Origin: an uncultured virus (IMG/VR IMGVR_UViG_2882234885_000002)
Lineage: Duplodnaviria; Heunggongvirae; Uroviricota; Caudoviricetes
IMG/VR virus record: IMGVR_UViG_2882234885_000002
Length of the DNA: 20,000 bases
Reading direction: 5' to 3' (one strand)
Of this stretch, positions 678-17,886 are shown one piece after another. Under the pieces are notes generated by a model, which was not told the origin of the DNA, ran no database searches, and worked only from the letters and a program-made list of their open reading frames with translations. Positions within the stretch are counted from its first letter, which is position 1. Every line of letters starts with the position of its first letter. The position numbers and the translations under genes are program-made.

Positions 678-872
678 ATGCAGGCACAGAACTTCATGCG
701 CGTGGAGGAAGTGGCCCAGGAGCTGGGCATCTCCAAGTCCCACGCCTATAAGGTGATCCACAAGCTCAACGCCGAACTCCGGGACAAGGGCTATCTGACC
801 ATCTCCGGGCGGGTCAACCGGAACTTTTTCATGGAGAAGTTTTGCTACGGCAAGACGGGAAAGGAGGGCTAA
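678..872 (+). CDS. Excisionase-like small HTH DNA-binding protein
   Basis: 64 aa, FMRVEEVAQELGISKSHAYKVI HTH, purine-rich RBS upstream, directly upstream of the integrase. Confidence 0.8.
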   Translation: MQAQNFMRVEEVAQELGISKSHAYKVIHKLNAELRDKGYLTISGRVNRNFFMEKFCYGKTGKEG

Positions 873-874
873 TC

Positions 875-1948
875 ATGGCAGTCTACAAGGAAGAAAAAAG
901 CAACACCTGGCGGGCAGTCTACCGCTACACCGACTGGAACGGCGAGCGCAAGCAGACCCAGAAGCGGGGCTTCAAGACCAAGCGGGAGGCGCAGGCCTGG
1001 GAGCGGGAACAGCTCAACAAGACCAGCGCCGACCTGGATATGACCTTTAAGAGCTTCGTGGATCTCTACACAGCGGATATGAAAACCCGGCTTAAGGAAA
1101 ACACCTGGGCCACCAAGGATCATATCATCCGTACCAAGCTGCTGCCCTACTTCGGCAAGCTCAAAATGTGCAACATCACCGCCCAGCAGATCATCACCTG
1201 GCAGAACGAGATGCTAAACCACAAGGACGAGAACGGCAAGCCCTATTCGCCGGTATACCTGAAAACAGTCCATAACCAGCTCAGTGCTATCTTCAACCAT
1301 GCGGTTCGGTACTACAACCTCCGGGAAAATCCCTGCAAGAAGGCAGGCAGCATGGGCAAAAAGAAAAACCGGGAGATGATGTTCTGGACCAAGGAGCAGT
1401 ACCAGAAATTTGCCGAGGTGATGATGGACAAGCCGCTGTCCTTCTACGCCTTTGAGATGCTCTACTGGTGCGGTATCCGAGAAGGGGAGCTGCTGGCCCT
1501 GACCCCAGCGGACTTTGACTTTGAGAAGCGCACCGTGTCCATCAACAAGTCTTACCAGAGGCTAAACGGCCAGGATCTGATTACCACTCCCAAAACCGAA
1601 AAGAGTAATCGGGTTATTACCATGCCGCAGTTTCTGGCCGAGGAAATCCAGGATTACATCAAGATGCTTTACGGCATCGGGCCGGACGACCGGATGTTCA
1701 CCGTCACCAAGAGCTATCTCCACCGGGAGATGGACCGAGGAGCCAAAGAAGCCGGGATACCGCGTATCAGAATCCACGATATTCGTCACAGCGCGGTGTC
1801 ACTTCTGATCGACATGGGATTCTCCGCCACGGCCATTGCGGACCGGGTGGGCCACGAGAGCATCGACATTACTTACAACTACGCGCACCTGTTTCCGTCC
1901 AAGCAGGCGGAAATGGCAGAGAAACTGAACATGGAAAGGGGCAATTAA
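875..1948 (+). CDS. int: Tyrosine recombinase/integrase with N-terminal arm-binding domain
   Basis: Start MAVYKEEK after RBS GGAGG. Arm domain KRGFKTKREA. Catalytic motifs GIREGELLAL (R), TPKT (K), HDIRH, VGH and ITYNYAH (Y). Confidence 0.95.
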   Translation: MAVYKEEKSNTWRAVYRYTDWNGERKQTQKRGFKTKREAQAWEREQLNKTSADLDMTFKSFVDLYTADMKTRLKENTWATKDHIIRTKLLPYFGKLKMCNITAQQIITWQNEMLNHKDENGKPYSPVYLKTVHNQLSAIFNHAVRYYNLRENPCKKAGSMGKKKNREMMFWTKEQYQKFAEVMMDKPLSFYAFEMLYWCGIREGELLALTPADFDFEKRTVSINKSYQRLNGQDLITTPKTEKSNRVITMPQFLAEEIQDYIKMLYGIGPDDRMFTVTKSYLHREMDRGAKEAGIPRIRIHDIRHSAVSLLIDMGFSATAIADRVGHESIDITYNYAHLFPSKQAEMAEKLNMERGN

Positions 1949-1950
1949 AA

Positions 1951-2286
1951 ATGTCGGCAAAGAATTTGGACAAGCACAACCGTTGGAGGAACAAGACCGT
2001 GGCCTTTCGGGTCTCCCCGGAGGAGGACGCCCAGATCGAGACGGCGGTCAAGCTCACCGGACTGACCAAGCAGGATTATATCATCCAGCGGCTGCTGTGC
2101 CGGGATGTGGTGGTCCAGGGCAACCCCAGGGTCTACAAGGCGCTGCGGGACCAGCTAGCTGCTGTGCTGGACGAGCTGCGCCGGATCGAGGTTGGGCATG
2201 GCGTGAATGACGAACTGCTGGACACCATCCGGATAATCGCTACCATTATGAACGGGATGCAGGAGGACTTTGCCTATGACCGATGA
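1951..2286 (+). CDS. Ribbon-helix-helix mobilization accessory protein (MobC-like)
   Basis: KTVAFRVSPEEDAQIETAVKLTGLTKQDYI fits an RHH pattern; tightly coupled to int and the next gene. Confidence 0.7.
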   Translation: MSAKNLDKHNRWRNKTVAFRVSPEEDAQIETAVKLTGLTKQDYIIQRLLCRDVVVQGNPRVYKALRDQLAAVLDELRRIEVGHGVNDELLDTIRIIATIMNGMQEDFAYDR

Positions 2287-3451
2287 GAAAAAGAAAATGA
2301 CCGCCCATGGCTCATCTGTTGGCGCAGATGATGGGCAGTCAATCTCTCAAAATTCCAAGATCACTATACCAGACCCAGACGAAAAAAGCAATTCCCCCGA
2401 AAGAGATTTGGAGGAACTTTACCGGAAGATGCGCCGCATGAGCGACCCGGCATACCTGCATACTGTGACCCTGGACGAACTGATGGACAATGTGTTCGAG
2501 GGCAAGTCTGCGGTGATTGAGAACCTGCTCTACACAGGAGCGTACATCCTTGCCGGAGCGCCGAAAATCGGAAAGTCCTTCCTGGTGGCGCAGATCGCTC
2601 ACCATGTCAGCACCGGGCAGGACTTGTGGGAATACAAAGTACACCAGGGGACCGTTCTCTATCTGGCGCTGGAGGATGATGAGAGCCGTTTGCAGCGCCG
2701 GATGTTCCGTATGTTTGGCGTGGAGGGGACAAGCTCCCTCCACTTTGCCACCAGTGCCAAAATGATTGGCAGCGGCCTGGATGAACAGCTGGAAAAGTTC
2801 GTCCGGGAACACAGCGATACTAAACTCATTATTGTGGATACCCTGCAAAAGGTCCGGGAGACGGCGAGTGACAGTTACAGCTATTCCAGCGACTATGAGG
2901 TGATCGGCAAGCTGAAACAATTTGCAGATCGGTATAGTGTCTGCGTCCTGATCGTCCACCACACCAGAAAGCAGCCTGCAGGAGACAGCTTTGAGATGAT
3001 TTCCGGTACCACAGGCCTGCTGGGCTGTGCGGATGGAGCGCTCCTGATGCAGAAAGAAAAGCGGACGGATAGTAAAGCCACTCTGGAGGTGGTAGGCAGA
3101 GACCAGCCCGATCAGCTGCTGTATCTCGGCAAGGATCAGGAGAGCTTAATTTGGAGCCTTGACCATGCGGAGAATGAGCTTTGGAAACAGCCTCCGGACC
3201 CCGTGCTGGAAGCCGTGGCGAAGATTGTATCTGCTGAAAACCTGGAATGGGAAGGGAGTCCTACCGAGCTGGCCCAGGCGATTCAGGCGGATATGGCGGT
3301 GAATCGGCTTACGAAGCATCTGAATGTAAATGCCAGCCGCCTGCTGGAAGAACATCAGGTGAAATATGAAAACAAAACCAAACACGCCGGACGGCGCATC
3401 CAGCTGACTTACATGGTGGTGGAAGCACCTGCGTTTGAAGTAATCAAGTAA
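2276..3451 (+). CDS. AAA_25/RepA-like helicase ATPase, probable replication protein of the element
   Basis: Walker A GAPKIGKS, VLYLALED, Walker B LIIVDTLQ, LIVHHTRK, SGTTGL. ATG at 2276 after AGGAGG. Confidence 0.88.
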   Translation: MTDEKKKMTAHGSSVGADDGQSISQNSKITIPDPDEKSNSPERDLEELYRKMRRMSDPAYLHTVTLDELMDNVFEGKSAVIENLLYTGAYILAGAPKIGKSFLVAQIAHHVSTGQDLWEYKVHQGTVLYLALEDDESRLQRRMFRMFGVEGTSSLHFATSAKMIGSGLDEQLEKFVREHSDTKLIIVDTLQKVRETASDSYSYSSDYEVIGKLKQFADRYSVCVLIVHHTRKQPAGDSFEMISGTTGLLGCADGALLMQKEKRTDSKATLEVVGRDQPDQLLYLGKDQESLIWSLDHAENELWKQPPDPVLEAVAKIVSAENLEWEGSPTELAQAIQADMAVNRLTKHLNVNASRLLEEHQVKYENKTKHAGRRIQLTYMVVEAPAFEVIK

Positions 3452-3978: not shown

Positions 3979-6783
3979 TTAAGTAAAAAATCCATATCCC
4001 GCCCGTAGGTTGCACAGACTGTACCCGGAAAGGGTTGTTCCCGGATTGTATGGTCCATAAGATCCCCCATTCCATGAGCGGCACCTCTCCGGTATGAACG
4101 CAGCCGGAGTGCCGGGCAGATAGAGGAAGAACTCATTTCCACCGTCTAGTCCATACGGGATGGAAGCCACATAGCGGATATCACCCTCCATCCACTCCTC
4201 ATCCACAGGGTGGCCGGTGGTCATCTCTAAATCTGTGAGGGTGAGGGACCAGGTGTGGTCGTCCAGCGGGGTGAACATAGAGAAGGCCCCCCGGAACCGG
4301 CACAGATAGATGGTGTTGTCTCCCATATCGCTGTCCTGGTACTCACCGGAGAAGGTGCCGTCGGGGAATAGGGCCAGCTCGGTGCTCCAGGCCCCCGCTC
4401 CGCTGGCGAAGCTGAAACTTATCCCCTCTGCCGGAATGGGCAGGGCCTCCTCCTCCGGGGGGAAGTTTCCTCGGGCTTCCAGGCCCATCAGCCGGGGTAC
4501 TCCGTAACCGAGATCCGAGCCGTGGGACGTGAACTTATATCGGCGGCGGATGTCCGGCTGGTTGGAGGTGTATTCCGTCTCCACTACCTGTCCCGTGCTC
4601 TCCACCTCCAAGGTGGCGAAGAACAGACCGGAGTATGTCAGACGCTCTTCCTGGTCGTCCCAGAGGAAGTAGGCATAGTTAACATTGTGGGAGAAGGTGC
4701 TGTTGACCAACAGGCCCAGATCGGCTGAGCCATCGCCGTTCAGATCCCGTAGGTCGGGAGCGCCAGGCACCTTGTTTGCGCCGGTGAGGCGATAGAGCCC
4801 CTCAAAGGAGTGTATCCCGTCCTCCCACACATTTCCTGCCGTAATGGTCTGGAGAAGACAGTCGCTATCCCATACCTTCACCTGCCGCACCAGAACGGTG
4901 TTTTCCAAATCGTCTATGGGTGCTTCATCGAACTCCAGGGTGATCGTTCGGCCATCAGCCAGTGGGAGTGGGTAGGTGGTGTTCTCCGTTCCCAGTCCCA
5001 ACTCCTGATTGGATCCCACGTGCCATTCCACCACCTGAGTCATCCGTCTTTCCCCATGGTCAAAGGTCAGCCGGGCGGTGAGCCACAGATCCACCTCCAT
5101 ATCCGACCGGGCAGTCAGGAGATAGTCGGCCTCCCCTGTATAATCCCGGCTGTAGACACTCAGCAGATAGTTCCCGTTGGCTGGGGTGAGGGAGATGATC
5201 TGCCATGGAATGGTGCCAATTTGGCCGCCTTGGCTCAATTCCTCCAGCCAGGCACGGGTCTGTCCATACACCCCGCCAGGGAGCTCCTGCTCCGGTGCAG
5301 ACCAGCCGTGGATATCCTCGTGGTAAACCCACCGGGGCGTCTCTGTCCCGATGGTAACGTCAGTGTTTCTGTCCAGCAGCTCCAGCCCAGAGGCCGACAT
5401 GAGGCCCAGATGATCCCGCCAGAAGGAGTCGTAATCAGCTTGCGCTTTGGAACCCTGCATCCGAACATCCCCATAGACTGGCCAGAACCAGGAGAGCTGC
5501 TCTCCATCCAGTCCCACTACACCGGCCTCCCCGGACACCGAGCCCTGATCCATACGGTTGAAGGTGTATAGCAGGTAGGCGTTCCCGTTTTGCTGGAAGG
5601 CTGCTGCATGGGGCGCACCTCCCTGACCAGTTCGGATATAGGCCGGGCCGGTCAGCACTCCGGTGTCATCCTCCAGGACGCCGATGGCGAGATAGACGGC
5701 ATTTGTGTTCCGGAAGGAGGCGGCACCCAGGGTATAGCCATTCTGACTGTAGGCGTAGAGCAATTCCGAGGCTGTCTCCCCCAAGGCGAAGTCCATCTGG
5801 GCGGAAACCTCTTGGTACAAAACTCCCAGCAAAGCCTGCTCCCGCAAACTGGCAGGGGTGGTGAAGCCGCCCTCCGGCTCGCCGCCGTCAAAGAACCACT
5901 GCCTCCACAGGGGAGGGTTCAGATTCAAGCACTCCGCCGCCGGAACCAGAGGCTGGAGCCCTGTCACCGCATATTGGTCATAGCGGGCAAAGGAGCCACC
6001 GGACCAAATGTACAGGCTGTCCGCACCGCTGATGGTGTCCTGCACAGTATCGTCCCGGTCGTCCACCCGGGCGGTGAGGTAGAAAACCGGTTGGCCGTTC
6101 TCTCCCATGCGAAAGCCCTCCAGAGCCTGGTTTTGAATGCAGATATTGGTATCGGGATACTCCTCCACCAGGCCGGGGTCATACTGGTCTGCCAGGGCTT
6201 GACACATACCCTCCTCCGTCTGCCCGGCCAGCGCCAAGGCCTGGTTCAGGGTGATCTGGGTCCCTTTCTCCTTGTCATAGACCAGGGAGGCGATGTGGCC
6301 GGTGTTCAGGTCGGTATGATACTCATCCCGGAGGAAAATCAGATTGAGGTAGCGGTCTGTCTCCGTGGGGTAGAGTAAACAGCGGTTTTCCATATTCATC
6401 AGGTCGGAGCCGGCCGTTCTACCCTCCAACACAGGCTGATAAAAAGCCTTGAGCTCCGCCAGCGCCTGGTTGATGGCAGTCACACCCTCGTTGCTCTGGG
6501 CTCCGTCGGGCATGGTCAGGACGGGAATTTCGATGTAATTGCCGTTGACATCGTAATACTGGGTGTCCATCACAAGGGAGGGAGACGGCTCCTGCCTCTG
6601 GCAGGACACCAAGTAAAAGCAGCAGAAGAGCGTGACCAGGGTGGAGAGAACGAACAGCCACCGGCCGGGGTGCTTGCGCCCACCGTCAAAGATGTTGCGC
6701 ATCCGCTCCTTATTCTCCCGCACGGTGCCGGAGAATCGGGTGGTAAAAGGAGAGCGGGGCGGATAGGGGATGTTTGTATTCAT
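3979..6783 (-). CDS. Large multidomain membrane-anchored/lipoprotein with an M56-C-terminus-like leader (putative sensor subunit 2)
   Basis: 934-aa ORF with RBS AAGGAGG. Leader SPFTTRFSGTVRENKERMRNIFDGGRKHPGRW, then a hydrophobic helix ending LVSC. Acidic extracellular domains with a DLNGDGSADL motif. Confidence 0.85.
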   Translation of the reverse strand: MNTNIPYPPRSPFTTRFSGTVRENKERMRNIFDGGRKHPGRWLFVLSTLVTLFCCFYLVSCQRQEPSPSLVMDTQYYDVNGNYIEIPVLTMPDGAQSNEGVTAINQALAELKAFYQPVLEGRTAGSDLMNMENRCLLYPTETDRYLNLIFLRDEYHTDLNTGHIASLVYDKEKGTQITLNQALALAGQTEEGMCQALADQYDPGLVEEYPDTNICIQNQALEGFRMGENGQPVFYLTARVDDRDDTVQDTISGADSLYIWSGGSFARYDQYAVTGLQPLVPAAECLNLNPPLWRQWFFDGGEPEGGFTTPASLREQALLGVLYQEVSAQMDFALGETASELLYAYSQNGYTLGAASFRNTNAVYLAIGVLEDDTGVLTGPAYIRTGQGGAPHAAAFQQNGNAYLLYTFNRMDQGSVSGEAGVVGLDGEQLSWFWPVYGDVRMQGSKAQADYDSFWRDHLGLMSASGLELLDRNTDVTIGTETPRWVYHEDIHGWSAPEQELPGGVYGQTRAWLEELSQGGQIGTIPWQIISLTPANGNYLLSVYSRDYTGEADYLLTARSDMEVDLWLTARLTFDHGERRMTQVVEWHVGSNQELGLGTENTTYPLPLADGRTITLEFDEAPIDDLENTVLVRQVKVWDSDCLLQTITAGNVWEDGIHSFEGLYRLTGANKVPGAPDLRDLNGDGSADLGLLVNSTFSHNVNYAYFLWDDQEERLTYSGLFFATLEVESTGQVVETEYTSNQPDIRRRYKFTSHGSDLGYGVPRLMGLEARGNFPPEEEALPIPAEGISFSFASGAGAWSTELALFPDGTFSGEYQDSDMGDNTIYLCRFRGAFSMFTPLDDHTWSLTLTDLEMTTGHPVDEEWMEGDIRYVASIPYGLDGGNEFFLYLPGTPAAFIPERCRSWNGGSYGPYNPGTTLSGYSLCNLRAGYGFFT

Positions 6784-6847
6784 GGGAACCTCCTTCGAAA
6801 AAATGGCGTAGAGCGCTAAACGGCGGCGTTACTTCATTACCTTTGGG

Positions 6848-8647
6848 TCAATCCGTCTGTCCCATCCAGACCAACTGGCCTCGTGCGTTAAAGGTATAGG
6901 CATGAGTCCCCTCGTCGAAGCGCTGCTCGATCAACTGCTCTTGCTCCTTGTCTACGGTCAGGTTTCCTTCCAGGGAGAAGGCATATCGGAACTGCTGGGC
7001 AGTCGGATCCCACAGGTACCAGGCGTGTGCGTCGTAATGGGTAGTATCGCAGGGAAGCCCCAGGTCATCCGAGCCGTCGAAGTTGACATCCCGTATGTCC
7101 GCATCATGTATCGTGGTCTCCGCCGAAAAGCCATGGGGATAGTAATGTTCAACCGGAATGGCGGTCTGGCTCCGGGTATCGGCATCAAAGACATACGGAT
7201 CTGGCAGCGGAAAACTGGGGGTAATCGTCTGAATTAAGGTGTCACCGTCAAAAATCTCTACCCGGTCGTAATAGAGGTAAGAGTAGTCATTCTCTGTGAC
7301 CTGGGAGACCGGCCCTGACAGCAGGATGGTCAGCTCCCGGCCGTCAGACAGGGTCAACCAGCTTGTGTAAGAAAAGCGGTTGTCCTGCTCCCACACAAAG
7401 GCCATTCCATTCCAGGACAAGATACCATAGCGCGTGTGCCATTTGTCCGGATACATGGCTGGAATCTGCAGGGTTTGAAGACCGTCCGGTCGGCTGTGAA
7501 GGGAAGCGCCAAAAACCAAATCACTATCCGGGGCGAGATTATCCGAGGCGTTTTCTCCGGTAACAAGCCGGGCTTTCTCATTCAGAGCACCGTCTTTCGC
7601 CTCCAGCACGAAATAACTGGCCACGCCATAGTTGGAGGTGCGGTCGGCAAGAATGAGGACAATGGACTGGCGTTCCGGGGAGGTAAGATGGGCAGGCAGT
7701 ATGTCCGGATACCCGGTGAGGTTACACGTCCATGTCAAAATCTCTCCGGTGCCCAGGGTAGCTTCTACCACGGTGAGAGGCCCCTGCTCGCTGTCGTAGT
7801 CAAAGGATGTGACGATGACAGAATCATCCTGTTTTCCTTGCCCGTCCAGACTGAGCTTCTCGTAAAAGGCCGAGTAGGTTCCGAAGGGAATGGTCGTACT
7901 CAAAGGCGTTCCTTCTTCTTCGTTCTCATCAGGGGCGGTGAGTATAATATCACCGCTGTTGGCTTCGTCCAGCAGCAGGGACAGAGGGACGGTTTCCTCC
8001 TGCCCGGTAACGGCGGAGATAGTCACCGTCCTATCCTCCGGGTGGAAGGTCAGGTGTACCAGGCGCCAAGGCTCTCCTTCCAGACCAAACCGATTGGCTG
8101 CTGCCTGGTCCAGACGCTGAAAACGCACCGAACCATCAGGCCACCGGCGCCAGACACTCAGTCCGCCATTCACGGCATCGTATTGCAGCAGCTCCAGCTG
8201 CCCGTCTCCATCTAAATCTAGGTGAAAAATTTCGCCGGAAGCATCTGCTAGTTCCAGCATAGTCCCGTCGGAGAGTTGAGCCTGATAGGTATACCAGTGG
8301 ATGCCCTCCTCAGTCACCGTATGGATGACAGTCCCGTGAAAGCCAAGCAGATTGGAGAAAGGGATGGTTTCCTCACCAGGCTCAGTCAGGGTGAAGACAG
8401 GGGCGCCATCCTCCGGTCGAGCCGAGGATGCGGGGTCATCTTGCTGCTCTTCCTCCGACGCCTGGCAGGATACCAGATAGAAGCAGCAAAAAAGCATGAC
8501 AAGGATGGACAGGAAGAACAACCATCGGCCAGGACGCTTGTTCCCGCCATCAAAGATATTGCGCAGCCGCTCCCGATTCTCTTGGGCGGTTCCGGTGAAA
8601 CAGGTGGTAAAGGGAGAGCGAAGAGTTACGCTGGAGGTGCGCTTCAT
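6848..8647 (-). CDS. Multidomain membrane-anchored/lipoprotein with an M56-C-terminus-like leader (putative sensor subunit 1)
   Basis: 599-aa ORF with RBS AAAGGA. Leader SPFTTCFTGTAQENRERLRNIFDGGNKRPGRW, then a hydrophobic helix ending LVSC. DLDGDGQLEL and DVNFDGSDDL motifs. Confidence 0.85.
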   Translation of the reverse strand: MKRTSSVTLRSPFTTCFTGTAQENRERLRNIFDGGNKRPGRWLFFLSILVMLFCCFYLVSCQASEEEQQDDPASSARPEDGAPVFTLTEPGEETIPFSNLLGFHGTVIHTVTEEGIHWYTYQAQLSDGTMLELADASGEIFHLDLDGDGQLELLQYDAVNGGLSVWRRWPDGSVRFQRLDQAAANRFGLEGEPWRLVHLTFHPEDRTVTISAVTGQEETVPLSLLLDEANSGDIILTAPDENEEEGTPLSTTIPFGTYSAFYEKLSLDGQGKQDDSVIVTSFDYDSEQGPLTVVEATLGTGEILTWTCNLTGYPDILPAHLTSPERQSIVLILADRTSNYGVASYFVLEAKDGALNEKARLVTGENASDNLAPDSDLVFGASLHSRPDGLQTLQIPAMYPDKWHTRYGILSWNGMAFVWEQDNRFSYTSWLTLSDGRELTILLSGPVSQVTENDYSYLYYDRVEIFDGDTLIQTITPSFPLPDPYVFDADTRSQTAIPVEHYYPHGFSAETTIHDADIRDVNFDGSDDLGLPCDTTHYDAHAWYLWDPTAQQFRYAFSLEGNLTVDKEQEQLIEQRFDEGTHAYTFNARGQLVWMGQTD

Positions 8648-8716
8648 GGAGGATTGTCCTTTCTTTGTTGAGATAGAGCTAAATAAAGGTAAAATAAGAT
8701 CATGGCGAGAAATATC

Positions 8717-9640
8717 TTAAATCCGTTTCGAGGAACGGGTGGTCAGTGCCTCCAAGGTATCCAACACGGTGCGACCATAAACCACCCGTCCCGCCTGTCC
8801 ACGGTTCTGAAGTACTGCATCATCGCAGGCCAGCTCCAAATCATACTCCACCCGACGTACCATCCACCACATAAGGGGGTTGAACCAGTGGACGGCGTTG
8901 GCCAGCAGGGCCAGGGCTTTCCGCCACACGTCCCGGCGTCGGTAGTGAGTCAATTCATGATCTAAAGTCAGCTCCAATGCCTCTCCTTGCGGTCCCTCTT
9001 GGGGAAGGAGAAGCAGGGGGCGGAGCAGACCACACAGCATGGGGGAAGTCAGACCGGGACAACGCATCAGTGCGGGGCGGCGATGTAGCCGCAGTCGGTT
9101 CCCTGCAGTGTTGAAGGCCAGTACTGTCTCCGGATCCGTTACAGGAACGGCCCAGCGCCTGAGCCAGCGGCAAAAACGCAGATGGGCTACCGAGTGACGT
9201 ACCAGAAGGACGGCGATCCCTGTCAACCAAAGTCCCAACAATAGGGTAGGAATTGGAAAAAATGTTCCAACTGGCTCAGATTCTTGTACAGAGGATTGGG
9301 AAGGAACTCTGTCCGTCGGGTGAGAGGTACCGCCATCTGCCTGTCCGCCGTTGACTTGGAGGTCAGGCCGTCTCTCTCCGGTTTCCAAAGGTGGCCGGTC
9401 TGGCACAGTATGACCAGAGGGAATTTGCAGGTATATCAGAGCGGAAGGTGTTTGTACGGGGATTGGAAGAGAGAATACGGGGATGGGCAGAACCATCAGA
9501 AGGCACAAAATACCCCAGGCCCGGCAGCGCCAGCGGGCAGCGTACCGTTTCCGGCTCATTCGCCCGGCCAAAGTCAGCAACAGCACAGCCACCCCGCCCC
9601 CCAGGGACAGAGTACCTAAGCGGGTGAGAAAGTCAGTCAT
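8717..9640 (-). CDS. BlaR1/MecR1-type M56 zinc metalloprotease, protease module only
   Basis: N-terminal TM helices, SPML, HELTHYRRRD (HExxH), HWFNPLMW, ELACD, YGRTVL. Ends at 307 aa with no final TM or sensor domain. Overlaps the blaI stop. Confidence 0.92.
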   Translation of the reverse strand: MTDFLTRLGTLSLGGGVAVLLLTLAGRMSRKRYAARWRCRAWGILCLLMVLPIPVFSLPIPVQTPSALIYLQIPSGHTVPDRPPLETGERRPDLQVNGGQADGGTSHPTDRVPSQSSVQESEPVGTFFPIPTLLLGLWLTGIAVLLVRHSVAHLRFCRWLRRWAVPVTDPETVLAFNTAGNRLRLHRRPALMRCPGLTSPMLCGLLRPLLLLPQEGPQGEALELTLDHELTHYRRRDVWRKALALLANAVHWFNPLMWWMVRRVEYDLELACDDAVLQNRGQAGRVVYGRTVLDTLEALTTRSSKRI

Positions 9641-10007
9641 CCTTCTTTCCTCCCTCTAACTGCTCCAGAAGGGTGCGCAGTTCATCCAGTTCCTGCCGAT
9701 CCAGACCATCCCTGGCCAGCGCGGCTACAAAGTTCCGAGGTGTGCCATACAGTCGCTTCAGCACTGTCCGGCTATCAAAGGATAGATATTCCTCCCGGGA
9801 GACCAGCGGCGTGTATAAGTTGCTTTTTCCATCCCGTTGGACGGTTACAAAGCCCTTCTCCACTAGCCGGGTTAGATAAGTGTTGATGGTATTACGGGAC
9901 CACTGAAAGGAAAGCAGTGCGTGATCCAGGGCCGAACGGGGAATATCTCGGCCGAGAGACCAGAGGGCCTTCATTACTTCCAGTTCTGTGTCAGGCAGTC
10001 GTTTCAT
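9633..10007 (-). CDS. blaI: BlaI/MecI/CopY-family transcriptional repressor
   Basis: LPDTELEVMKALW, WSRNTINTYLTRLVEKGFV, YTPLVSREEY; RBS AAAGGAG. Confidence 0.93.
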   Translation of the reverse strand: MKRLPDTELEVMKALWSLGRDIPRSALDHALLSFQWSRNTINTYLTRLVEKGFVTVQRDGKSNLYTPLVSREEYLSFDSRTVLKRLYGTPRNFVAALARDGLDRQELDELRTLLEQLEGGKKDD

Positions 10008-10025
10008 ATCGTTCTCCTTTGATTT

Positions 10026-10078
10026 ACTTCAAATGTAGTCATCTGATTTATACTACACCATAAGGTAATTGCAGTCAA
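10026..10078 (-). promoter_or_regulatory. Sigma-A promoter and BlaI/MecI-type operator of the blaI operon
   Basis: Minus strand TTGACT(10078-10073)-17bp-TAGTAT(10055-10050). ACTACATTTGAAGT (10039-10026) is one mismatch from the MecI-type dyad ACTACA-NN-TGTAGT. Confidence 0.75.
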
Positions 10079-10532
10079 GTTACAGTGCAGTAACAACCAT
10101 CTTTTCAAGCATTCAGCTAAAATAATATTTCCTATGCGTCATCCGGTGGGAGAGTACAGTAGTACGGGTAGCGTTTGATGTACAATCAAGCACATATACT
10201 GGAGTACAGTAGCCACACAACTGGTTTCGTAGAAAGGGGTCCATAATGTCACTGTAGATATAATGGAATAGTTTTCCCTCTTTTGTACTTGCGTTTCTTG
10301 TGGATTAGTAATATAGTAATAAAGAAAATATTTGCTCTCTGTATGGCAACACCATGGCAACAAAAAATCAGATAGCCTCTACTATCTGAATAATGAAAAG
10401 AATGGTAATAATCTGAGCCAAATCCCATAAGCAAATTTGTTTAAAAAACTTCTGGCAGGAGCGAGTGGGAATGAAGCACAAACCTCAAGAAAGCCTTATT
10501 TTAAGCCATTTTCAGAGGTTGTGCCGGTGGGC

Positions 10533-10551
10533 TGATACTATTTTGATACTA
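10533..10551 (+). repeat. TGATACTATTTTGATACTA copy 1 (integrase arm-site-like tandem repeat)
   Basis: Two TGATACTA units; an identical 19-mer occurs at 12495-12513. Confidence 0.6.
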
Positions 10552-10729
10552 TAAAGCAGCCACTTATCATTACAGAGAGACATGAAAATGCCTTCTGGGA
10601 AACGGCAAGTTTTCCAGAGGGCTATTTTATTGCAAATTTTATATGTAAGAATTATTAGAATAGAAAATTTTTACTTCTTCAACAAAACTTTGCATGAGCA
10701 AAAAAGCTTCTTTAGCTTCTTTAAGTTTA

Positions 10730-11409
10730 GGCAAAAGTGAAGAAGGGGAACTTGCAAAGGAAATCTTGATTGAATTTATGAAAGATTTTCAGAAACGGAA
10801 TCCATACTGGAAGAAAAATGTGCAGAGTTTCGGGGCGAATTAGGGCAGATACAGGGGCAAATAACCCTTGCTGGAGCTGAGATGGAGCAATTACAGGAAG
10901 ATACCAAAGAAGCCAGAGAGGAAGCTCTAAAAGCGGAAAAACAGGCAGATAAGCAACAAAAACGGCTCAAGGAACTTGCCCCGGCTGTGAAGAACATAGA
11001 GCGGTTGGCAGCGGATTTCTCCGCCGACCCGGAGGAGATTTTGCCGGAGCCGGGAACACTGGAAACAGGCAGGGCCTACCGGGAGAAAAAGGCCAAGCCC
11101 CTGCTGGCTCAAATCGTCAAGGTGCTGCGCTCCCTGTATCTGGCCTATGTGGAGCTGCGGGGGAAATTTGAGCGCCTGCAAGGGGACTATGGCCGGGTGA
11201 GGGAGAGCAACGCTCGCCTGTCTGATCGCTTGCAGGAGGCCAAGCTGGAGAACAAGGCCCTGCGGCAAGTGTCCGCAGACTACGAGCGAGTCAAGCGGGT
11301 CTTTGGCCCGGAACAGGTGAAGGCGGCAGTACAGGCCGACAAACAGCGGGAACAGGTAGAGAAAGGCCGCAAGCGGCCCCGGCGCACCCTTGACCGGGGA
11401 GGGCGGTAA
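10730..11409 (+). pseudogene. Remnant of a Mob/Pre (MOB_V) relaxase: short internal fragment joined out of frame to the coiled-coil C-terminus
   Basis: 10733-10807 reads KSEEGELAKEILIEFMKDFQKRNPY, the segment that precedes the HUH motif in Mob_Pre proteins. A different frame from 10807 reads LEEKCAEF...LPEPGTLETGRAYREKKAKPL...DYERVKRVFG. No N-terminus or HUH motif. Confidence 0.7.
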
Positions 11410-11426
11410 ACGGGAACTTTTTTGAC

Positions 11427-11456
11427 GGGCAGGGGCGGAAAATCCCGCCCCTGCCC
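11427..11456. terminator. GC-rich hairpin, probable terminator between convergent genes
   Basis: gggcaggggcgg-aaaatc-ccgcccctgccc, perfect 12-bp stem. Confidence 0.55.
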
Positions 11457-11605
11457 TTGCCTTTTGGGGCGGCAGTCGGTATAATGGTTTGTATAAATTT
11501 CTGCGCCGTTTTGGTGCAACAGGGAACTTGTGTTGTGTGATTGAGTCCCTTTAGGTCGCATTGAAAAAATATAAACTTAGGTGCCTCTGTTAGATAATAA
11601 ATGCT

Positions 11606-11953
11606 TTATTCATTATTGCACTCTATTCGTTTATAAATGGAACCATCCCATGCGGCATACACTGCTATATACTCATAATCTGGATATTCACTAATCATAT
11701 ATAGCTTCTTTGCATTGTCAGTTTTACATATTAAAACATCAGAAATCGTGTAATTCTCACCGCTTGCTACTGAAACATAACCATATTTATCTCCGTTTAA
11801 GATAATATAGTCTCCTTGCTCTGTAGCGGTATTTTTATGTCCGAGATTATGTGTGTAATGCAGATGGCCAATATATACAACTACGGCCACAATTAAAAAA
11901 GCTAACACATATCTCCATTGTCTCATATTAAATTTACTTTGTACTCTTTTCAT
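11606..11953 (-). CDS. Hypothetical protein with a single N-terminal TM/signal anchor
   Basis: 115-aa low-GC ORF, hydrophobic YVLAFLIVAVVVYI, purine-rich upstream RBS (GAGGAG/AGAGAAG). Confidence 0.65.
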   Translation of the reverse strand: MKRVQSKFNMRQWRYVLAFLIVAVVVYIGHLHYTHNLGHKNTATEQGDYIILNGDKYGYVSVASGENYTISDVLICKTDNAKKLYMISEYPDYEYIAVYAAWDGSIYKRIECNNE

Positions 11954-12132
11954 CTTCTCTTACTCCTCATGAATTGTTCTCATAATACCATAATTCCGAG
12001 AACATGAAAAGAGATGATTTTGCAGACTGAAATTAGACTTATTTGGTATTATTAAATTGCCGCGATCTCAGTTTGACAAACACATAAATTCTTTAATAAC
12101 AAGGGTGAGTGGGAGAATTGATAGCGGCGAGG

Positions 12133-12287
12133 GTAGCAACCCCAGCCGGGGCCGTCAATGGTCAAGATGAACGGCGCACAAGTGCGCCGCCATTGACCGC
12201 CTCGCCCGGTCTTGCTGAACGGTAATCAAGGCGGGCAAGCCCCAATGGTGCTTGCCCGCCCCCTTTGGATTTTGGGAGGGTGCGGTT
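12133..12287 (+). repeat. Structured ~150-bp dispersed repeat, copy 1
   Basis: gtagcaa...gtcaatgg...cggcgca..tgcgccgccattgac...cccggtcttgct..cggt.atcaaggcgg.caagcccca..ggtgcttgcccg...gattttggg...gtgcgg, shared with 13677-13821. Confidence 0.8.
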
Positions 12288-12494
12288 GTCGAAATGCGTC
12301 CCACCGTGCGATTGATTTCCCGGCGGACACCGCCCGCCGCTCCTCCTCTCCCCAGGGAGCGTAAACGCTCCCTGGGGGTGGTCGAAATATGGCTCAAATT
12401 GAGCCATATTTCGACGGAAACTCCCATCAATTTGAGGGGAGTTTTGATAAAGGCCCGTTTGCGGCCCGAAACCCTTGCAATTTCAAGGTTTTTG

Positions 12495-12513
12495 TGATAC
12501 TATTTTGATACTA
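12495..12513 (+). repeat. TGATACTATTTTGATACTA copy 2 (integrase arm-site-like tandem repeat)
   Basis: Identical to 10533-10551; preceded by the dyad aaacccttg-caattt-caaggtttt. Confidence 0.6.
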
Positions 12514-12633
12514 AAAATGCGAACTGCCCCAAATAAGCAAGCGAAACATTAACATATTTGCGAAAGCTTTTCCTGCAAAACCACCTCAAATACACCCCCA
12601 TATATTTGAATTTGCCGAGTGGGATTTTTTGTG

Positions 12634-13584
12634 ATGCCTAATAGACGCTCGATTATTATTGATGGACAGAAAATTACTTTAGACGCAACGGAACTGCCAA
12701 TGGGCCTTCAAATCATGAAAGATTTGACACCAATCGCAGTTTTGAAATGCTTAAAAAAACTGGAACTGCCCTGCAACTTAATCTCCGATTTAACACCGCT
12801 GGCAGAATTAAAACAACTATCTAATCTTGACCTTGCGATGAACCGAATTACAGATTTGACGCCGCTTTCAAATCTGACGCAACTAAAAAAACTACTTCTA
12901 AGTAAAAATCAAATCATAGACCTGACGCCGCTGTCCAACTTAACACAACTAAAGGTCTTGTGTTTAGGAGAAAATCAATGTGTTGACTTGTCACCATTAA
13001 AAGATTTGAAATTGCTGGCGTTTCTGGATTTGAGTTATAATCCAATTACGGACATATCACCTTTAGCGGCTCTCTCTCGAATCGTGAACTTACGACTATC
13101 AAACATCCAGATTACAGATATTTCTTTTCTTGCAAATATGAAACAATTGCGCAGCTTATACCTTAGCGGATGTCAAATTGTCACTCTATCACCCTTGGCT
13201 GGCCTAACACGGTTAGAGTGGCTGGACTTGAGTGATAACTGTATTTCAAATTTGGCACCCTTGGCAGGATTACTGCGATTAAGTACACTGTATCTGAACC
13301 ACAACCAAATCACAGACCTATCGTCCTTGACAGGTTTGCCAAAATTGTTTGAACTGCATCTGGAACACAATGGAGTCACAGATTTGACGCCGTTGACCAG
13401 TTTGACTTGGCTACACAGGTTGTATCTAGAGGGCAATCCTGTCAGCGACCTAACGCCATTGATTAATATGCCAATGCTGAGGGAACTAATTATACTAGAT
13501 TGCCCAATTCAAAAACGCAGCCTTGCGGCTTTCCGAAAGGCGCGGCCGGATTGCTATATTGAAATAAGACATAAACGCAAATAG
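12634..13584 (+). CDS. Internalin-type leucine-rich repeat protein (about 12 x 22-aa LRR), no signal peptide
   Basis: Repeats such as LTPLSNLTQLKKLLLSKNQIID; C-terminal cap FRKARPDCYI. Start uncertain (12619 GTG or 12634 ATG). Confidence 0.88.
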   Translation: MPNRRSIIIDGQKITLDATELPMGLQIMKDLTPIAVLKCLKKLELPCNLISDLTPLAELKQLSNLDLAMNRITDLTPLSNLTQLKKLLLSKNQIIDLTPLSNLTQLKVLCLGENQCVDLSPLKDLKLLAFLDLSYNPITDISPLAALSRIVNLRLSNIQITDISFLANMKQLRSLYLSGCQIVTLSPLAGLTRLEWLDLSDNCISNLAPLAGLLRLSTLYLNHNQITDLSSLTGLPKLFELHLEHNGVTDLTPLTSLTWLHRLYLEGNPVSDLTPLINMPMLRELIILDCPIQKRSLAAFRKARPDCYIEIRHKRK

Positions 13585-13676
13585 CAGTGGGGCCATTATA
13601 TTTCCCTTATATCGAGTTAATTTAACTGCGCCTTCTTGGTATAATGCGTACTTGCCAACTTCAATCAGTTGGAAAG

Positions 13677-13821
13677 GTAGCAAACCCGGGCGGGGCAGTC
13701 AATGGCGGCGCATTTCATGCGCCGCCATTGACTGCCCCGCCCGGTCTTGCTCGACGGTCATCAAGGCGGACAAGCCCCAGGGGTGCTTGCCCGACTCCTT
13801 TGATTTTGGGTGGGGTGCGGT
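13677..13821 (+). repeat. Structured dispersed repeat, copy 2 (35-bp stem hairpin plus a second hairpin)
   Basis: 13679-13751 has 35-nt arms with 2 mismatches and a ttc loop; homologous to 12133-12287. Confidence 0.8.
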
Positions 13822-13898
13822 GGTTATGGTTTGAGGACTTGATTGAAGAGCGTGTTCTTGACTTAGGATATTTTTATTCATGAAATAAGGAGTTTGGA

Positions 13899-14720
13899 AT
13901 GAAAATAAAAAGTCTCAGAATTAAAAATTCTCGTGGATATTGTGGCGAAATATCAGTAAATTTTGGTGAATTCACTGCATTTGTTGGAAAAAAACGATAT
14001 TGGAAAGTCTAGTATTATGGATGCCTTAGATATATTTTTTAATGACGGAAAAGGTGTTGTAAAACTGGACAGAGAGGACGTAAACGTTGGCGCACAAGCA
14101 AATCAGGAGAATGAAATAAATATCGCAGTTTGCTTTTCGGAACTCCCAGATAGGATTGTTATTGACGCAACAAATGAAACTACACTTTTAGGCGAACATC
14201 TCTTAAATGCGGATGGTCTACTTGAAATTATAAAAAAATACCCAAATGGCGGAAGCGCAAGGTATTTATCAGAGCCTTTCATCTAACAAATCCAGATTGT
14301 GCCGACTTACTCTTAAAAAAAAGATAATGAATTACGCCGGATAATAGATACAAAGCAAATCCCCTGTGCTGATAAAACGAGAAACGCTGTGATGCGATCC
14401 GCTATATGGCAATATTATAATGAAGGCTTAAAAATGTCAGTCATCGATATTGACGTTACAAAGGAAAATACCAAATCCATTTGGGAAAAATTGCAAAAAT
14501 ATTTACCGCTATACTCTTTGTTCCAATCAGATAGAAAGAATAGTGATGGCGATAGTGTGAAGTACAAGACCTTCTCAAGGAAGCTGTGAAAGAAATACTT
14601 CCAGATGAAGAATTGCAGCGGATATTAGATGGTGTAGCTACAACTGTTGAAGGGAAATTGAAAGAAGTTTCCACTCGTACATTGGAAAAACTTAAGGAAA
14701 TAAGTCCTGATATTGCCAAT
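13899..14720 (+). pseudogene. OLD/AAA_15-type ABC ATPase (defence-associated nuclease family), multiply frameshifted and 3'-truncated
   Basis: RBS AAGGAG. MKIKSLRIKNSRGY...TAFVG / KNDIGKSSIMDALDIFF is a Walker A broken at an A7 run (~13990). Further shifts near 14260, 14320 and 14556. Ends abruptly at ...EISPDIAN. Confidence 0.8.
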
Positions 14721-14721
14721 G

Positions 14722-14880
14722 CTGGCGGACCCGGACGCCTACGGCGCGGAGCGTGTGGCCCTCTACAACGTGAGCTTCGACGACCTGACCCTGGCCGACT
14801 GGGAGGCCAAGAGCGTGGGCAAGGTGGAGGCCCCCTTCACCTTCACCGACTTCGAGTATCTGGACATGGTAACGGTCTGA
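14722..14880 (+). pseudogene. C-terminal fragment of an XkdM-like phage tail tube protein
   Basis: LADPDAYGAERVALYNVSFDDLTLADWEAKSVGKVEAPFTFTDFEYLDMVTV*; the 5' part is missing. Confidence 0.85.
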
Positions 14881-14914
14881 GGGAAATGAAAAAGCCGCCC
14901 CAAAAGGGCGGCGA

Positions 14915-14943
14915 TTGACAAAACGCGGCGCGGCAGGTAAAAT
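14915..14943 (+). promoter_or_regulatory. Consensus sigma-A promoter for the small toxin-like ORF
   Basis: TTGACA(14915-14920)-17bp-TAAAAT(14938-14943), just after the hairpin gccgccc-caaaa-gggcggc. Confidence 0.8.
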
Positions 14944-15005
14944 GATGGCGGCGCTGTTGTAACATGGCGGTCAGCCACTTCCCTGAGAAGGGAGGTGATG
15001 CGATT

Positions 15006-15255: not shown

Positions 15256-15633
15256 ATGAGTAAACTGTTGGATATTTTGCTGCGGCCAGAGCTGCCCAAT
15301 GTGGCAAAGGAGCTGCCTGAGTGCAAAGTAAAGGTCAAGCGCCTGTCCCGGCTGGCGGGGGAGGACGTGGTGTTCACCCTCCGGGCCCTGCCCTACGGGC
15401 GGGTGCAGGAGATCAAGGAGCTCAAGGAGGACGCCGCGCTGTCCATCCTGCTCTCCGGGCTCGTGGACCCGGACCCCAAGGCGTCCGAGCTGAAGGAGCG
15501 GTATGGAGGAGCCACCCCGGCGGAGACGCTGAAGGCCCTGCTGCTGCCCGGTGAGATCGAGGATCTGTCCCGGGAGGTGGAGCGCCTGTCCGGCTACCGG
15601 GGGGAGACCATCCAGAAGCTAAAAAACGTCTGA
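15256..15633 (+). CDS. XkdN-like phage tail assembly chaperone (G protein)
   Basis: RBS AAAGGA, ...LLLPGEIEDLSREVERLSGY...IQKLKNV; lies between tail tube and tape measure. Confidence 0.85.
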   Translation: MSKLLDILLRPELPNVAKELPECKVKVKRLSRLAGEDVVFTLRALPYGRVQEIKELKEDAALSILLSGLVDPDPKASELKERYGGATPAETLKALLLPGEIEDLSREVERLSGYRGETIQKLKNV

Positions 15634-15791
15634 GGGACGGCGGCGACCCGGATCTGGAGCTGATGTTCTATCTGTTCCGGGAGGGGAAGCCCTTCGACCC
15701 GGCGGCGGTGTACCGCCTGACCGCCGGGGAGAAGGACCTCCTCTGGGCGCTGGCGTCCTACGAGAGCGAGATAAGGCAAAAAAGGACATGA
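15621..15791 (+). CDS. -1 frameshift extension (T part) of the tail assembly chaperone
   Basis: Slippery A-AAA-AAC at 15621-15627. The -1 frame stays open to TGA at 15789-15791: RLRDGGDPDLELMFYLFREG...YRLTAGEKDLLWALASYESE. Confidence 0.75.
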   Translation, partial: KKRLRDGGDPDLELMFYLFREGKPFDPAAVYRLTAGEKDLLWALASYESEIRQKRT

Positions 15792-15822
15792 AAAAGCCCC
15801 GCCGTGCGGGCGGGGCGCTGGG

Positions 15823-15921
15823 TCACAAAATGGAGATGAGCATCGGAAGGCCTAGGAGAGTGAGAATAATCATCGTGACGATCAACACGATCTTAAAGCT
15901 TTTTTCGGATTCGTCGTCCAT
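15823..15921 (-). CDS. 32-aa single-TM membrane peptide (moron)
   Basis: MDDESEKSFKIVLIVTMIILTLLGLPMLISIL*; RBS AAGGAGA; own promoter TTGACT(15972-15967)-16bp-TATAAT(15950-15945); downstream hairpin gccccgcc-gtgcg-ggcggggc preceded by an A-run. Confidence 0.7.
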   Translation of the reverse strand: MDDESEKSFKIVLIVTMIILTLLGLPMLISIL

Positions 15922-15986
15922 TAGGATCTCTCCTTTTTTATTTTATTATACAACGCTCCAAACGAAAGTCAAGTGAGGTGAGCAAT

Positions 15987-17099
15987 ATGCCGGAGGCGTC
16001 TATCGTCATTACGGCCCAGGACCGCTACTCCAGCGCGGTCAAGAGCATGGCGTCCGTGACCAAGAGCTTTTCCAAGGACGCCGAGCAGATGGAGAAAACC
16101 CTCAGGAATCTCCAGAAAAACAAATACGACCTGAAGGTCAAGACCGATGAGGCCCGTTCCGAGCTGAAGGCGCTGGAGAAGCAGTACGCCGCCACGGGGG
16201 ATGAGGCGGACCGGCTCAAGGTGGAGCTGGCGCAGGCCAAATTCACCACGGCGCAGCAGAACCTTGCCCTGGTCACGAAGGGGGCGGCGGCGGCCCAGCG
16301 GCAGATGGAGAAAACGGGCGGAGCCTGGAGGAAGATGGAGACCACGGTGGGCGGCTCCTCCGGGATGAAGGGAATCGTCAGCGCCGTGGCGTCGATGGGG
16401 GCGGGGCAGATGCTGTCCCAGGCCGCGCAGCAGATCGGGAACACCCTCATTGGGAGCGCGTTCACATCGTCTGCCGGGACGGTGGTTTCCTCGATCTTGT
16501 CCGGCGCGGCTTCCGGCGCGGGCATCGGGGCCATGACCGGGACGACCTTCGGAACCGCCATTGGCGCGGCCATTGGCGGCGCGACGGGTCTGGCCACCGG
16601 CGCGTCCCAGGTGTTTTCCAAGAAGGACGACGCCTTCAAGAGCTATGTGCAGGCCGCCGTAGAGGGACAGATCTCCCAGCGGGAGAGCGACATTGCCTCA
16701 GGGTCCTCCATTGCCGCCGGGCGGGAGACTGACCTGGTTTCCTTCTCCACCATGTTCAAAAGCGAGGATACGGCAAAAAAGTATCTGGGCGACCTGGTGG
16801 AGATGGCCAACACCACGCCGTTCCTCTATGACGATCTGACCGCCATGTCCAAGACCCTGGCTACTTACGGCTACACGGCGGACAGCATCCTCCCGGTGCT
16901 GCGGACGGTGGGCGACACCGGCGCGGCCCTGGGAATGTCCACCGGCGACATGACCATGGTGTCCACCGCGCTGGGGCGCATGAAGTCCAGCGACAAGACC
17001 ACCCTGGAATACCTCAATATCCTCAACGACCGGGGCGTGGGCGCGGTGGGGATGCTCTCCGACGCCTACGGGGTGGACCAGGGGACCATGTACGACATG
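15987..17099 (+). pseudogene. Tape measure protein, N-terminal ~370 aa only
   Basis: MPEASIVITAQDRYS, Ala/Gly-rich helical region, tape-measure motif LVEMANTTPF...LGRMKSS...YLNILNDRG. Reading then continues in frame into unrelated sequence to 17360. Confidence 0.8.
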
Positions 17100-17885: not shown

Positions 17886-17886
17886 T

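Follow-up and report, generated by a model that had tools for sequence, protein, structure and literature searches.

Analysis of a 20,000-nucleotide stretch of DNA from an uncultured Caudoviricetes virus (IMG/VR record IMGVR_UViG_2882234885_000002; hereafter the window) revealed a minus-strand operon of four consecutive genes, which encode, in this order, a repressor of the BlaI/MecI type (blaI), a short M56 membrane protease and two large proteins, here termed A and B. The locus, encoded by a gut bacterium, is best read as a true BlaR1/BlaI switch that is divided among several chains and conserved in this form. Its protease stops short of the segment that holds the self-cleavage site in Staphylococcus aureus BlaR1, and a homologous segment forms the N-terminal leader of both A and B, each followed by an outer domain of its own. 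We consider it probable (about 0.65) that A and B are sensor chains whose leaders dock on the common protease, supply the rest of its active site and gate the cleavage of BlaI; homology to BlaR1 and patterns of conservation are the basis of this figure. An earlier interpretation made from the letters alone (the sequence-only reading) had proposed such a receptor, split between one M56 protease and two separately encoded sensor subunits that each carry the missing M56 C-terminal segment, and all features that it named are present in the sequence where it had placed them.

The product of the second gene matches Peptidase_M56 (PF05569) with an E value of 1.6e-38 and covers only positions 4 to 272 of the 296-position profile. 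It contains both the HExxH and the ELACD motif noted by the sequence-only reading and thus the gluzincin core (H228, E229, H232, E269, D273, and Y288), plus membrane helices. In an alignment of 15 short M56 proteins, H228, E229, H232, and E269 are invariant, as is D273 (15/15), the partner Asp of the leader arginine described below. The chain terminates in ...YGRTVLDTLEALTTRSSKRI, some 19 residues beyond the YG motif, and is devoid of the cleavage loop, helix alpha9 and the last membrane helix. An AlphaFold2 (AF2) model of the short protein alone had a mean predicted local distance difference test (pLDDT) score of 81.8, and its PDB matches ranked 1 to 6 were all BlaR1 chains (E = 3e-6 to 8e-5), with Ste24 next at 0.05. 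Scores with the NCBIfam models of the complete receptors were low, i.e., 96.9 bits for blaR1_generic (cut-off 400), matched only at positions 92 to 272 of 585, and 23.1 and 10.7 bits for the MecR1 and BlaR1 models (cut-off 1200). Protease, autocleavage loop, alpha9, last membrane helix, and sensor are not joined in one polypeptide as in the BlaR1/MecR1 type; the remainder of the M56 segment is found at the N terminus of two other genes.

The leaders of A and B show 77% identity over 56 residues, whereas the remainders of the two proteins share one stretch of about 150 residues at 29% identity and nothing else, which bears out the earlier description of closely similar leaders of about 60 amino acids attached to different extracellular domains. 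Both leaders consist of the same parts, namely a homolog of the cleavage loop (SPFTT followed by C16-F17 in A and by R16-F17 in B), an alpha9-like helix with R27, a membrane helix, and the sequence L-V-S-C61. For leader A, the secondary structure of the AF2 model shows helices at H21-33 and H41-59. A profile built from six one-piece and four short M56 proteins, with C-terminal columns from the one-piece proteins only, was matched by the leaders at positions ~296 to 353 (E = 7.6e-9 for A and 2.4e-6 for B in a small search) and by the short M56 proteins at positions 1 to ~298. An alignment of this kind had been proposed as a check by the sequence-only reading, and the result agrees with its claim. 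Moreover, 17 stand-alone leaders of related genomes and 7 internal segments of one-piece M56 proteins could be aligned almost without gaps, and a one-piece M56 paralogue in the genome of the window harbors the homologous segment internally, after the YG motif (E = 2e-4 within the genome). No Pfam family picks up the leaders, and a word-based search with the leader alone returned only the window's own two proteins. On the evidence of these alignments, the leaders are homologous to the autocleavage loop, helix alpha9 and last membrane helix of one-piece M56 proteins.

The M56 profile search also matched S. aureus BlaR1 (8EXP) with E = 1.4e-20, a relative that was found by the profile and not by a phmmer search of PDB with the one-piece paralogue, which gave no match. 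According to the paper on the BlaR1 structures (PMC9834060), self-cleavage of BlaR1 takes place in cis at the Ser283-Phe284 bond, residues 271 to 289 occupy the active site in a substrate-like manner, and Arg294, which the swapped alpha9 of the partner protomer contributes, is salt-bridged to Asp246 and directed toward Phe284. In the profile alignment, the S283-F284 bond falls on a conserved x-F pair and Arg294 on the one invariant arginine of the segment. Aligned to 8EXP, the equivalents of the scissile bond are C16-F17 in A and R16-F17 in B, Arg294 corresponds to R27 in both proteins, and Asp246 corresponds to D273 of the short protease. This arginine is invariant in 27 of 27 stand-alone leaders. 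The short protease has no equivalent of Arg294; that residue sits on the sensor chains, where a putative autocleavage loop is recognizable by a hydrophobic P1' residue (F17) and by R27 on the following helix. Judged from the alignment to S. aureus BlaR1, the gene break lies about 16 residues before the self-cleavage bond. Hence the receptor is not "pre-cleaved," as the sequence-only reading had assumed: the scissile bond maps inside the leaders, and in this alignment the sensor chains keep the whole cleavage loop, including its P side.

The locus thus resembles S. aureus BlaR1/BlaI (8EXP-8EXT; PMC9834060) in having a BlaI-type repressor gene beside an M56 gluzincin membrane protease with HExxH...E, equivalents of Asp246 and Tyr261, and the same protease fold. 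Also the order of elements is the same, with an x-Phe loop, the helix with the Arg294 equivalent, the last membrane helix and an outer domain, and directly after the last membrane helix lies a peptidase site, which is a putative, lipobox-like one here and a type I signal-peptidase site in BlaR1. In contrast to BlaR1, the chain is broken ahead of the self-cleavage bond; the loop, the alpha9 arginine, the last helix, and the sensor are located on two separate proteins; and there is neither a penicillin-binding domain nor a beta-lactamase. MecR1/MecI belongs to the same family and follows the same logic, and the locus differs from it as it does from BlaR1. Full-text searches of the literature gave no description of a split BlaR1-type receptor.

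The stop codon of the M56 gene (TAA, 8717-8719) and the ATG of gene A lie in the same frame, 23 codons apart, as would suit a pseudogene peculiar to this strain, a fault in the assembly, or read-through of the in-frame TAA into a one-piece protein. However, the same four genes are present in Pseudoflavonifractor intestinihominis and P. capillosus ATCC 29799, the only two loci found in a search for related loci from a single protein, and in the Pseudoflavonifractor orthologue M56 and gene A are in different frames. The shared frame in the window is therefore a coincidence, and read-through or fusion of M56 and gene A was rejected. Both downstream genes have a ribosome-binding site (RBS) of their own (AAAGGA, 9 nucleotides 5' of the ATG, for A and GAAGGAGG 5' of the ATG for B), in line with the separate starts that had been claimed for them, and gene B lies in another frame without an upstream protease of its own. 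All parts are under purifying selection, with ratios of nonsynonymous to synonymous substitution rates (dN/dS) against the Pseudoflavonifractor orthologues of 0.06 for blaI, 0.21 to 0.23 for M56, 0.18 to 0.19 for A, and 0.23 to 0.24 for B, at dS values of 0.8 to 1.3. Over the full 6.25 kb, contigs from independent pig-gut and anaerobic-digester metagenomes show 14 and 7 substitutions, respectively, lack indels, and retain the stop; in the spacer between M56 and A there is one substitution only, and the stop codon is kept. Together with the 17 loci of the same architecture described below, these observations make an accident of this strain or of its assembly extremely improbable.

Close homologues that are always single fused frames would likewise have pointed to pseudogenization. 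In a set of 301 genomes of the family, each of the 12 proteins nearest to the protease (39 to 71% identity) is instead encoded by a short open frame of 289 to 411 amino acids; one-piece relatives appear only from about 41% identity downward. A quick maximum-likelihood tree with a midpoint root was built from 24 short and 34 one-piece M56 domains (58 in total), which had been picked by similarity to the window protease and by leader searches. On this tree, 3 changes suffice to account for the short state, versus 18.6 in shuffles, and the M56 of the window falls in a clade of 11 that are all short (support 100). Relatives of the outer domain of A are also separate from the protease: the best 120 of 323 are all stand-alone proteins of 578 to 604 amino acids, none with M56. 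Four of five that were fetched keep the leader, and one, from Flavonifractor plautii, has a degenerate leader. We are nearly certain that the split of the receptor is real, old, and widespread. The genome of the window also has another M56 gene (G000:C19:93909-94753; L003/L004), which is matched in two frames that meet at profile position 125; this gene is frameshifted or contains a sequencing error, unlike the clean split at the operon.

The sequence-only reading had called for a search of genomes for arrays of blaI, short M56 and leader genes and for orphan leaders, and both exist. On locus maps drawn with three home-made profiles, BlaI and a short M56 are accompanied by one, two, or three leader genes at 15 of the 18 loci, and 2 more were added later, giving 17 arrays; an orphan array occurs in genome G031. 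A protease is accompanied by one to three leader genes, elsewhere by four, with unrelated outer domains. Three loci (in G199, G023, and G096) show a variant order of BlaI, leader gene, and short M56. This variant was seen in L039, L096, and L098, of which L039 and L096 have further leader genes after M56; in L039, an ordinary lipoprotein gene lies in between.

Short M56 frames were found in 16 of the 301 genomes of the family; 15 of the frames were retrieved and confirmed, and a sixteenth (G183) was confirmed in locus L043. They are a minority, amounting to 5 of 150 listed M56 matches in a 101-genome sample, and all 5 real short genes of that sample adjoin a leader gene. Two candidates were discarded: the short M56 of G029 is a contig-end truncation, and a leader-like match in G365 is weak, covers profile positions 17 to 57 only and comes from a genome without an M56 match. 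Across the class, the segment profile matched 44 of 399 genomes, and the 29 loci fetched comprise 10 stand-alone leaders, 18 one-piece proteins and 1 cut by a contig end. Stand-alone leaders occur in seven or eight coded families, that of the window included. Comparison of a profile of 27 stand-alone leaders with 1.84 billion representative proteins gave 1995 matches with E <= 0.001, of which 505 reach E <= 1e-10. Each of the 150 best-scoring proteins is matched from residue 1 to 11 onward; as the profile was built from stand-alone leaders, its ranking favors these, and the share among the best 150 may differ from that of all 1995. None of 79 leader proteins (>= 300 amino acids) scanned has an M56 domain, 75 are without any Pfam family, and 10 have an XAC2610-like module. 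In the 29 leader proteins from the loci, DUF4825 was detected in 3 and DUF4362 in 1.

Leaders of the same locus are much alike, with a median identity of 73% (20 pairs, 9 loci), compared with a median of 32% and a maximum of 55% between loci (229 pairs). Identity among the outer domains of one locus does not exceed 31%, and most of them are unrelated. By these comparisons, leaders track the locus and not the outer domain, as is expected of chains that all have to fit one common protease. A recent leader duplication, or gene conversion, could equally account for this likeness within a locus. The same numbers bear on the view that A and B are mere BlaI-regulated cargo, with leaders that are relics of gene fission and make no contact with a protease that works alone. 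Such a protease would resemble the BlaR homologs without a sensing domain that are known and under study (CenIR preprint; 10.64898/2026.04.08.717257), and orphan leader arrays do exist. A relic, however, would not keep an invariant arginine in 27 of 27 leaders, nor would relic leaders of one locus remain 73% identical when the domains joined to them have diverged to 31% or less. In addition, the short protease lacks the equivalent of Arg294 that BlaR1 needs, and short M56 genes adjoin a leader gene in five of five cases of the 101-genome sample. We regard the cargo explanation as improbable.

How the chains may work together can be drawn by analogy to BlaR1, from which we infer docking, completion of the active site in trans, cleavage of BlaI, and the existence of a signal. 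The 307-amino-acid protein is the membrane-embedded zinc protease core, and each downstream protein would be a single-pass chain with a cytoplasmic N terminus, the first ~61 residues of which stand in for what follows the protease core in one-piece BlaR1. The loop of the leader would sit in the active site as a substrate (C16-F17 or R16-F17), and R27 on the amphipathic alpha9 would complete this site by pairing with D273; the last membrane helix and the variable outer domain would follow. A docked leader would hence both complete and occupy the active site of the protease. A change in the outer domain could then shift the arrangement of leader and protease, leading to a cut in BlaI and de-repression of the operon, and two different outer domains would be served by one protease and one repressor.

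As to what these domains might sense, Pfam detected no transpeptidase (PF00905) or other family in A or B, consistent with the earlier statement that an SxxK penicillin-binding domain is missing. Gene A contains an XAC2610-like module (NF047539, 4.5e-9, 36.7 bits versus a cut-off of 35) at amino acids 518 to 594 (nucleotides 6866-7096), and a similar stretch of gene B (1.1e-4, 22.6 bits) at amino acids 678 to 753 (nucleotides 4525-4752) stays below that cut-off. The AF2 model of A is poor, with a mean pLDDT of 54 and good values only at residues 80 to 230. Its best fold match is 4qtq_A, i.e., XAC2610 (Z = 8.3, root mean square deviation [rmsd] of 3.2 over 140 residues), which covers model residues 423 to 599 at a pLDDT of ~50 to 70, with a Z score of ~8 being near the typical best of unmatched models. 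This match agrees with the sequence-level match to NF047539, and Tsi1 is also among the fold matches (Z = 5.3). Foldseek returned only generic propeller matches for A, with TM scores of 0.17 to 0.23 and rmsd values above 20, and no propeller fold is claimed.

XAC2610 of the X-Tfi system (PDB 4QTQ) is an immunity protein against the lysozyme-like effector XAC2609; PMC10933484 describes it as a lipobox-bearing inhibitor with a Ca2+ loop and a topology common to Tsi1 and PliI. Gene A resembles it in passing the cut-off of the NCBIfam XAC2610_fam model, in acidic DxDxDG motifs similar to Ca loops, and in a motif like the lipoprotein box of XAC2610. It differs in that the module is one part of a much larger protein on an M56-type leader, gene B scores below the cut-off, and a scan of 14 flanking open reading frames (ORFs) revealed no gene for a cognate hydrolase. 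Because XAC2610-like modules occur in the outer domains, the signal may be a peptidoglycan hydrolase, a ligand class that is plausible, if unproven.

Several points weigh against sensor chains that gate cleavage of BlaI in this way. A conserved motif in BlaI, x-[F/L]-[V/L]-A-[A/S]-L, lies near the MecI cleavage helix, but its register relative to the N101-F102 bond of MecI is ambiguous, with the phmmer alignment being offset by about 5 residues, and the P1 residue of the putative site differs among loci. In genome G031 (completeness 89%), which has a tandem of four leader genes, no short M56 turned up, all 10 of its M56 matches being full length. A protein of Flavonifractor plautii (P0007) has an outer domain 65% identical to that of A without the motif of cleavage loop and Arg helix, and it appears from this that the outer domain can exist uncoupled from an M56-like leader. 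The model of A, with its mean pLDDT of 54, also makes the inference of a ligand weak. Finally, the outer domains may be lipid anchored, and even cut from their leaders, if the lipobox-like motif is used; a cut between leader and outer domain would break the covalent path of the signal. In G031, the array (L037; G031:C34:2000-16000) is located downstream of a TetR-like gene, with leaders that are 82 to 96% identical, unrelated outer domains, and no BlaI or short M56 within ~24 kb. P0007 retains the membrane helix and LSSC at its N terminus; possibly it is a former sensor chain that has become a simple lipoprotein.

The lipobox-like motif, L-V-S-C61 directly after the membrane helix in both A and B, leads to a different explanation, to which we assign a low but real chance. 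The leaders might be long type II signal peptides, with Lgt lipidating Cys61 and Lsp cutting before it. The outer domains would then be ordinary lipid-anchored lipoproteins, i.e., immunity-like cargo and not sensors, and the freed membrane peptide of ~60 residues would meet the protease as a cofactor, pseudo-substrate, or inhibitor, the switch reporting the production or processing of its own lipoproteins and not an outside ligand. Of 34 distinct stand-alone leaders, 27 match the core lipobox pattern (in A and B, a Tyr at position -4 is all that prevents a match), the aligned column holds Cys in at least 90% of 27 leaders, and both Lgt (PF01790, 6.7e-78) and Lsp (PF01252, 1.4e-38) are encoded in the genome of the window. 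Acidic low-complexity tethers follow Cys61 in A and B, as would suit lipoproteins, and the F. plautii relative has lost the M56-like motif while keeping its membrane helix and LSSC. On the other side, the same core pattern is present in 11 of 32 one-piece M56 segments and is hence compatible with an intact receptor. The Cys of a lipoprotein is expected at about residue 15 to 35, far earlier than residue 61, and the diversity of outer domains within a locus would be left unexplained. Two published proteins also fit such processing: the named protein closest to the outer module, XAC2610, carries a lipoprotein box itself (PMC10933484), and BlaR1 has a type I signal-peptidase site at the position of the lipobox-like motif, G331-Q332, where cleavage sheds the sensor and serves turnover (PMC9834060).

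With a somewhat smaller chance still, the leaders could be lipoprotein signal peptides and the missing catalytic segment at once, the peptide left after Lsp cleavage being loaded onto M56 and BlaI cleavage reporting lipoprotein flux or processing. If this were true, the peptide left by Lsp would carry a substrate-like loop and an active-site arginine, and one gene would provide sensor, effector, and protease cofactor. It would amount to a self-tuning envelope-immunity circuit on a mobile element, in which XAC2610-like lipoproteins are monitored.

Pairs of M56 and BlaI that sense something other than beta-lactams have been described. According to the CenIR preprint (10.64898/2026.04.08.717257), most M56 proteins are without a penicillin-binding domain, and CenIR of Clostridioides difficile and mycobacterial BlaR are such pairs. 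The C-terminal domains of CenIR-type M56 proteins are diverse or unannotated and include M23 and DUF4825, the latter being shared with 3 of 29 leader proteins here. These are one-piece proteins, in contrast to the split proteins of this study, and in the main text of the preprint the words split, truncated, autocleavage, lipoprotein, and trans are absent.

The coordinates of the operon are compiled in Table 1. The repressor gene and the M56 start overlap by 8 nucleotides, and the repressor is translationally coupled to M56. The blaI product matches Penicillinase_R (PF03965) with 7.8e-25, and MecI (1OKR) is its best solved relative (1.8e-9). Upstream of blaI, two dyads around the promoter-like site are candidate BlaI operators. 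They are unchanged in the two Pseudoflavonifractor orthologous upstream regions, where the mean column identity is 84%; an inverted-repeat finder gave nothing there at seed 6. Hairpins 3' of gene B probably mark the end of the operon, a weak assignment as the count of terminator-like hairpins is near chance (8 found versus 5.6 expected).

Table 1. Features of the split-receptor operon in the window (positions refer to the whole stretch)
Feature	Position	Strand	Description
blaI	9633-10007	-	124 amino acids, BlaI/MecI-type winged-helix repressor; PF03965
Short M56 protease	8717-9640	-	307 amino acids; PF05569
Gene A	6848-8647	-	ORF of 599 amino acids
Gene B	3979-6783	-	ORF of 934 amino acids
Spacer M56/gene A	8648-8716	-	69 nucleotides, AT-rich, RBS AAAGGA inside
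Leader of gene A (residues 1-61)	8465-8647	-	Homolog of the M56 C-terminal segment
Outer domain of gene A	6848-8464	-	Beta-rich; DxDxDG-type loops; XAC2610-like module
Leader of gene B (residues 1-61)	6601-6783	-	Same module as leader A; preceded by RBS GAAGGAGG
Outer domain of gene B, about 870 amino acids	3979-6600	-	No Pfam family; weak XAC2610-like stretch
Promoter-like site TTGACT-17-TAGTAT	10078-10050	-	Promoter scan
Dyad GTTACnGCnCTGTAAC	10079-10094	-	Candidate BlaI operator, from three-way upstream alignment
Dyad TGTAGT-N12-ACTACA	10034-10057	-	Candidate BlaI operator, from three-way upstream alignment
Two terminator-like hairpins 3' of gene B	3953-3937, 3881-3861	-	Hairpin scan

The operon is adjoined by genes for a tyrosine integrase, a NikA-like protein, and an AAA_25/DnaB_C-like ATPase on the plus strand (842-3451). 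P. capillosus (L045:2-2325) has the same integrase module, at ~71% nucleotide identity, on the opposite side of its operon. The switch seems to travel on an integrative or mobilizable element. Positions 10000-15000 of the window are AT-rich (GC content of 0.38 to 0.48 versus 0.55 to 0.60 in the operon) and include a gene for a leucine-rich-repeat protein at 12619-13584 (LRR_4, 1.5e-48). Phage tail remnants follow at 15256-18308, i.e., an XkdN-like tail assembly chaperone, a TMP_3 tape measure protein, and a holin-like ORF. A transposase of the Mutator/IS256 family extends over two overlapping frames (18525-19421 and 19160-19714, together 18525-19714), and its split is a frameshift or programmed slippage.

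Half or more of the sampled words of the operon stretch were found in 18 sequencing runs. All holders taken together stem from 11 studies, which cover the gut of cattle and pigs, further gut samples, and a single digester. In one pig metatranscriptome, contigs with at least 99% identity were present on all four genes (25 of 30 bins), with DNA carry-over being possible, and none of these contigs bridges the M56/A or blaI/M56 junction by 31 letters or more. They are no proof of transcription or co-transcription.

BlaR1 and MecR1 are the textbook case of membrane-protease signaling by repressor cleavage, and the locus described here is a natural dissection of it, in which the loop, the alpha9 arginine, and the sensor have been separated from the protease core onto exchangeable chains. 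The roles of the autocleavage loop, of the swapped alpha9 with Arg294, and of sensor shedding in BlaR1 signaling are still under debate (PMC9834060). As these elements are located on exchangeable chains, simple co-expression would allow tests of whether the active site is completed in trans, how sensors compete, and what the cleavage loop does. A common N-terminal docking module is proposed for at least 1995 protein clusters, nearly all of them without an annotated domain, and the leader would thereby provide a functional handle on dark-matter surface proteins of gut Clostridia. With one protease and repressor serving several sensor chains on a mobile element, the system may also be a possible chassis for engineered sensors.

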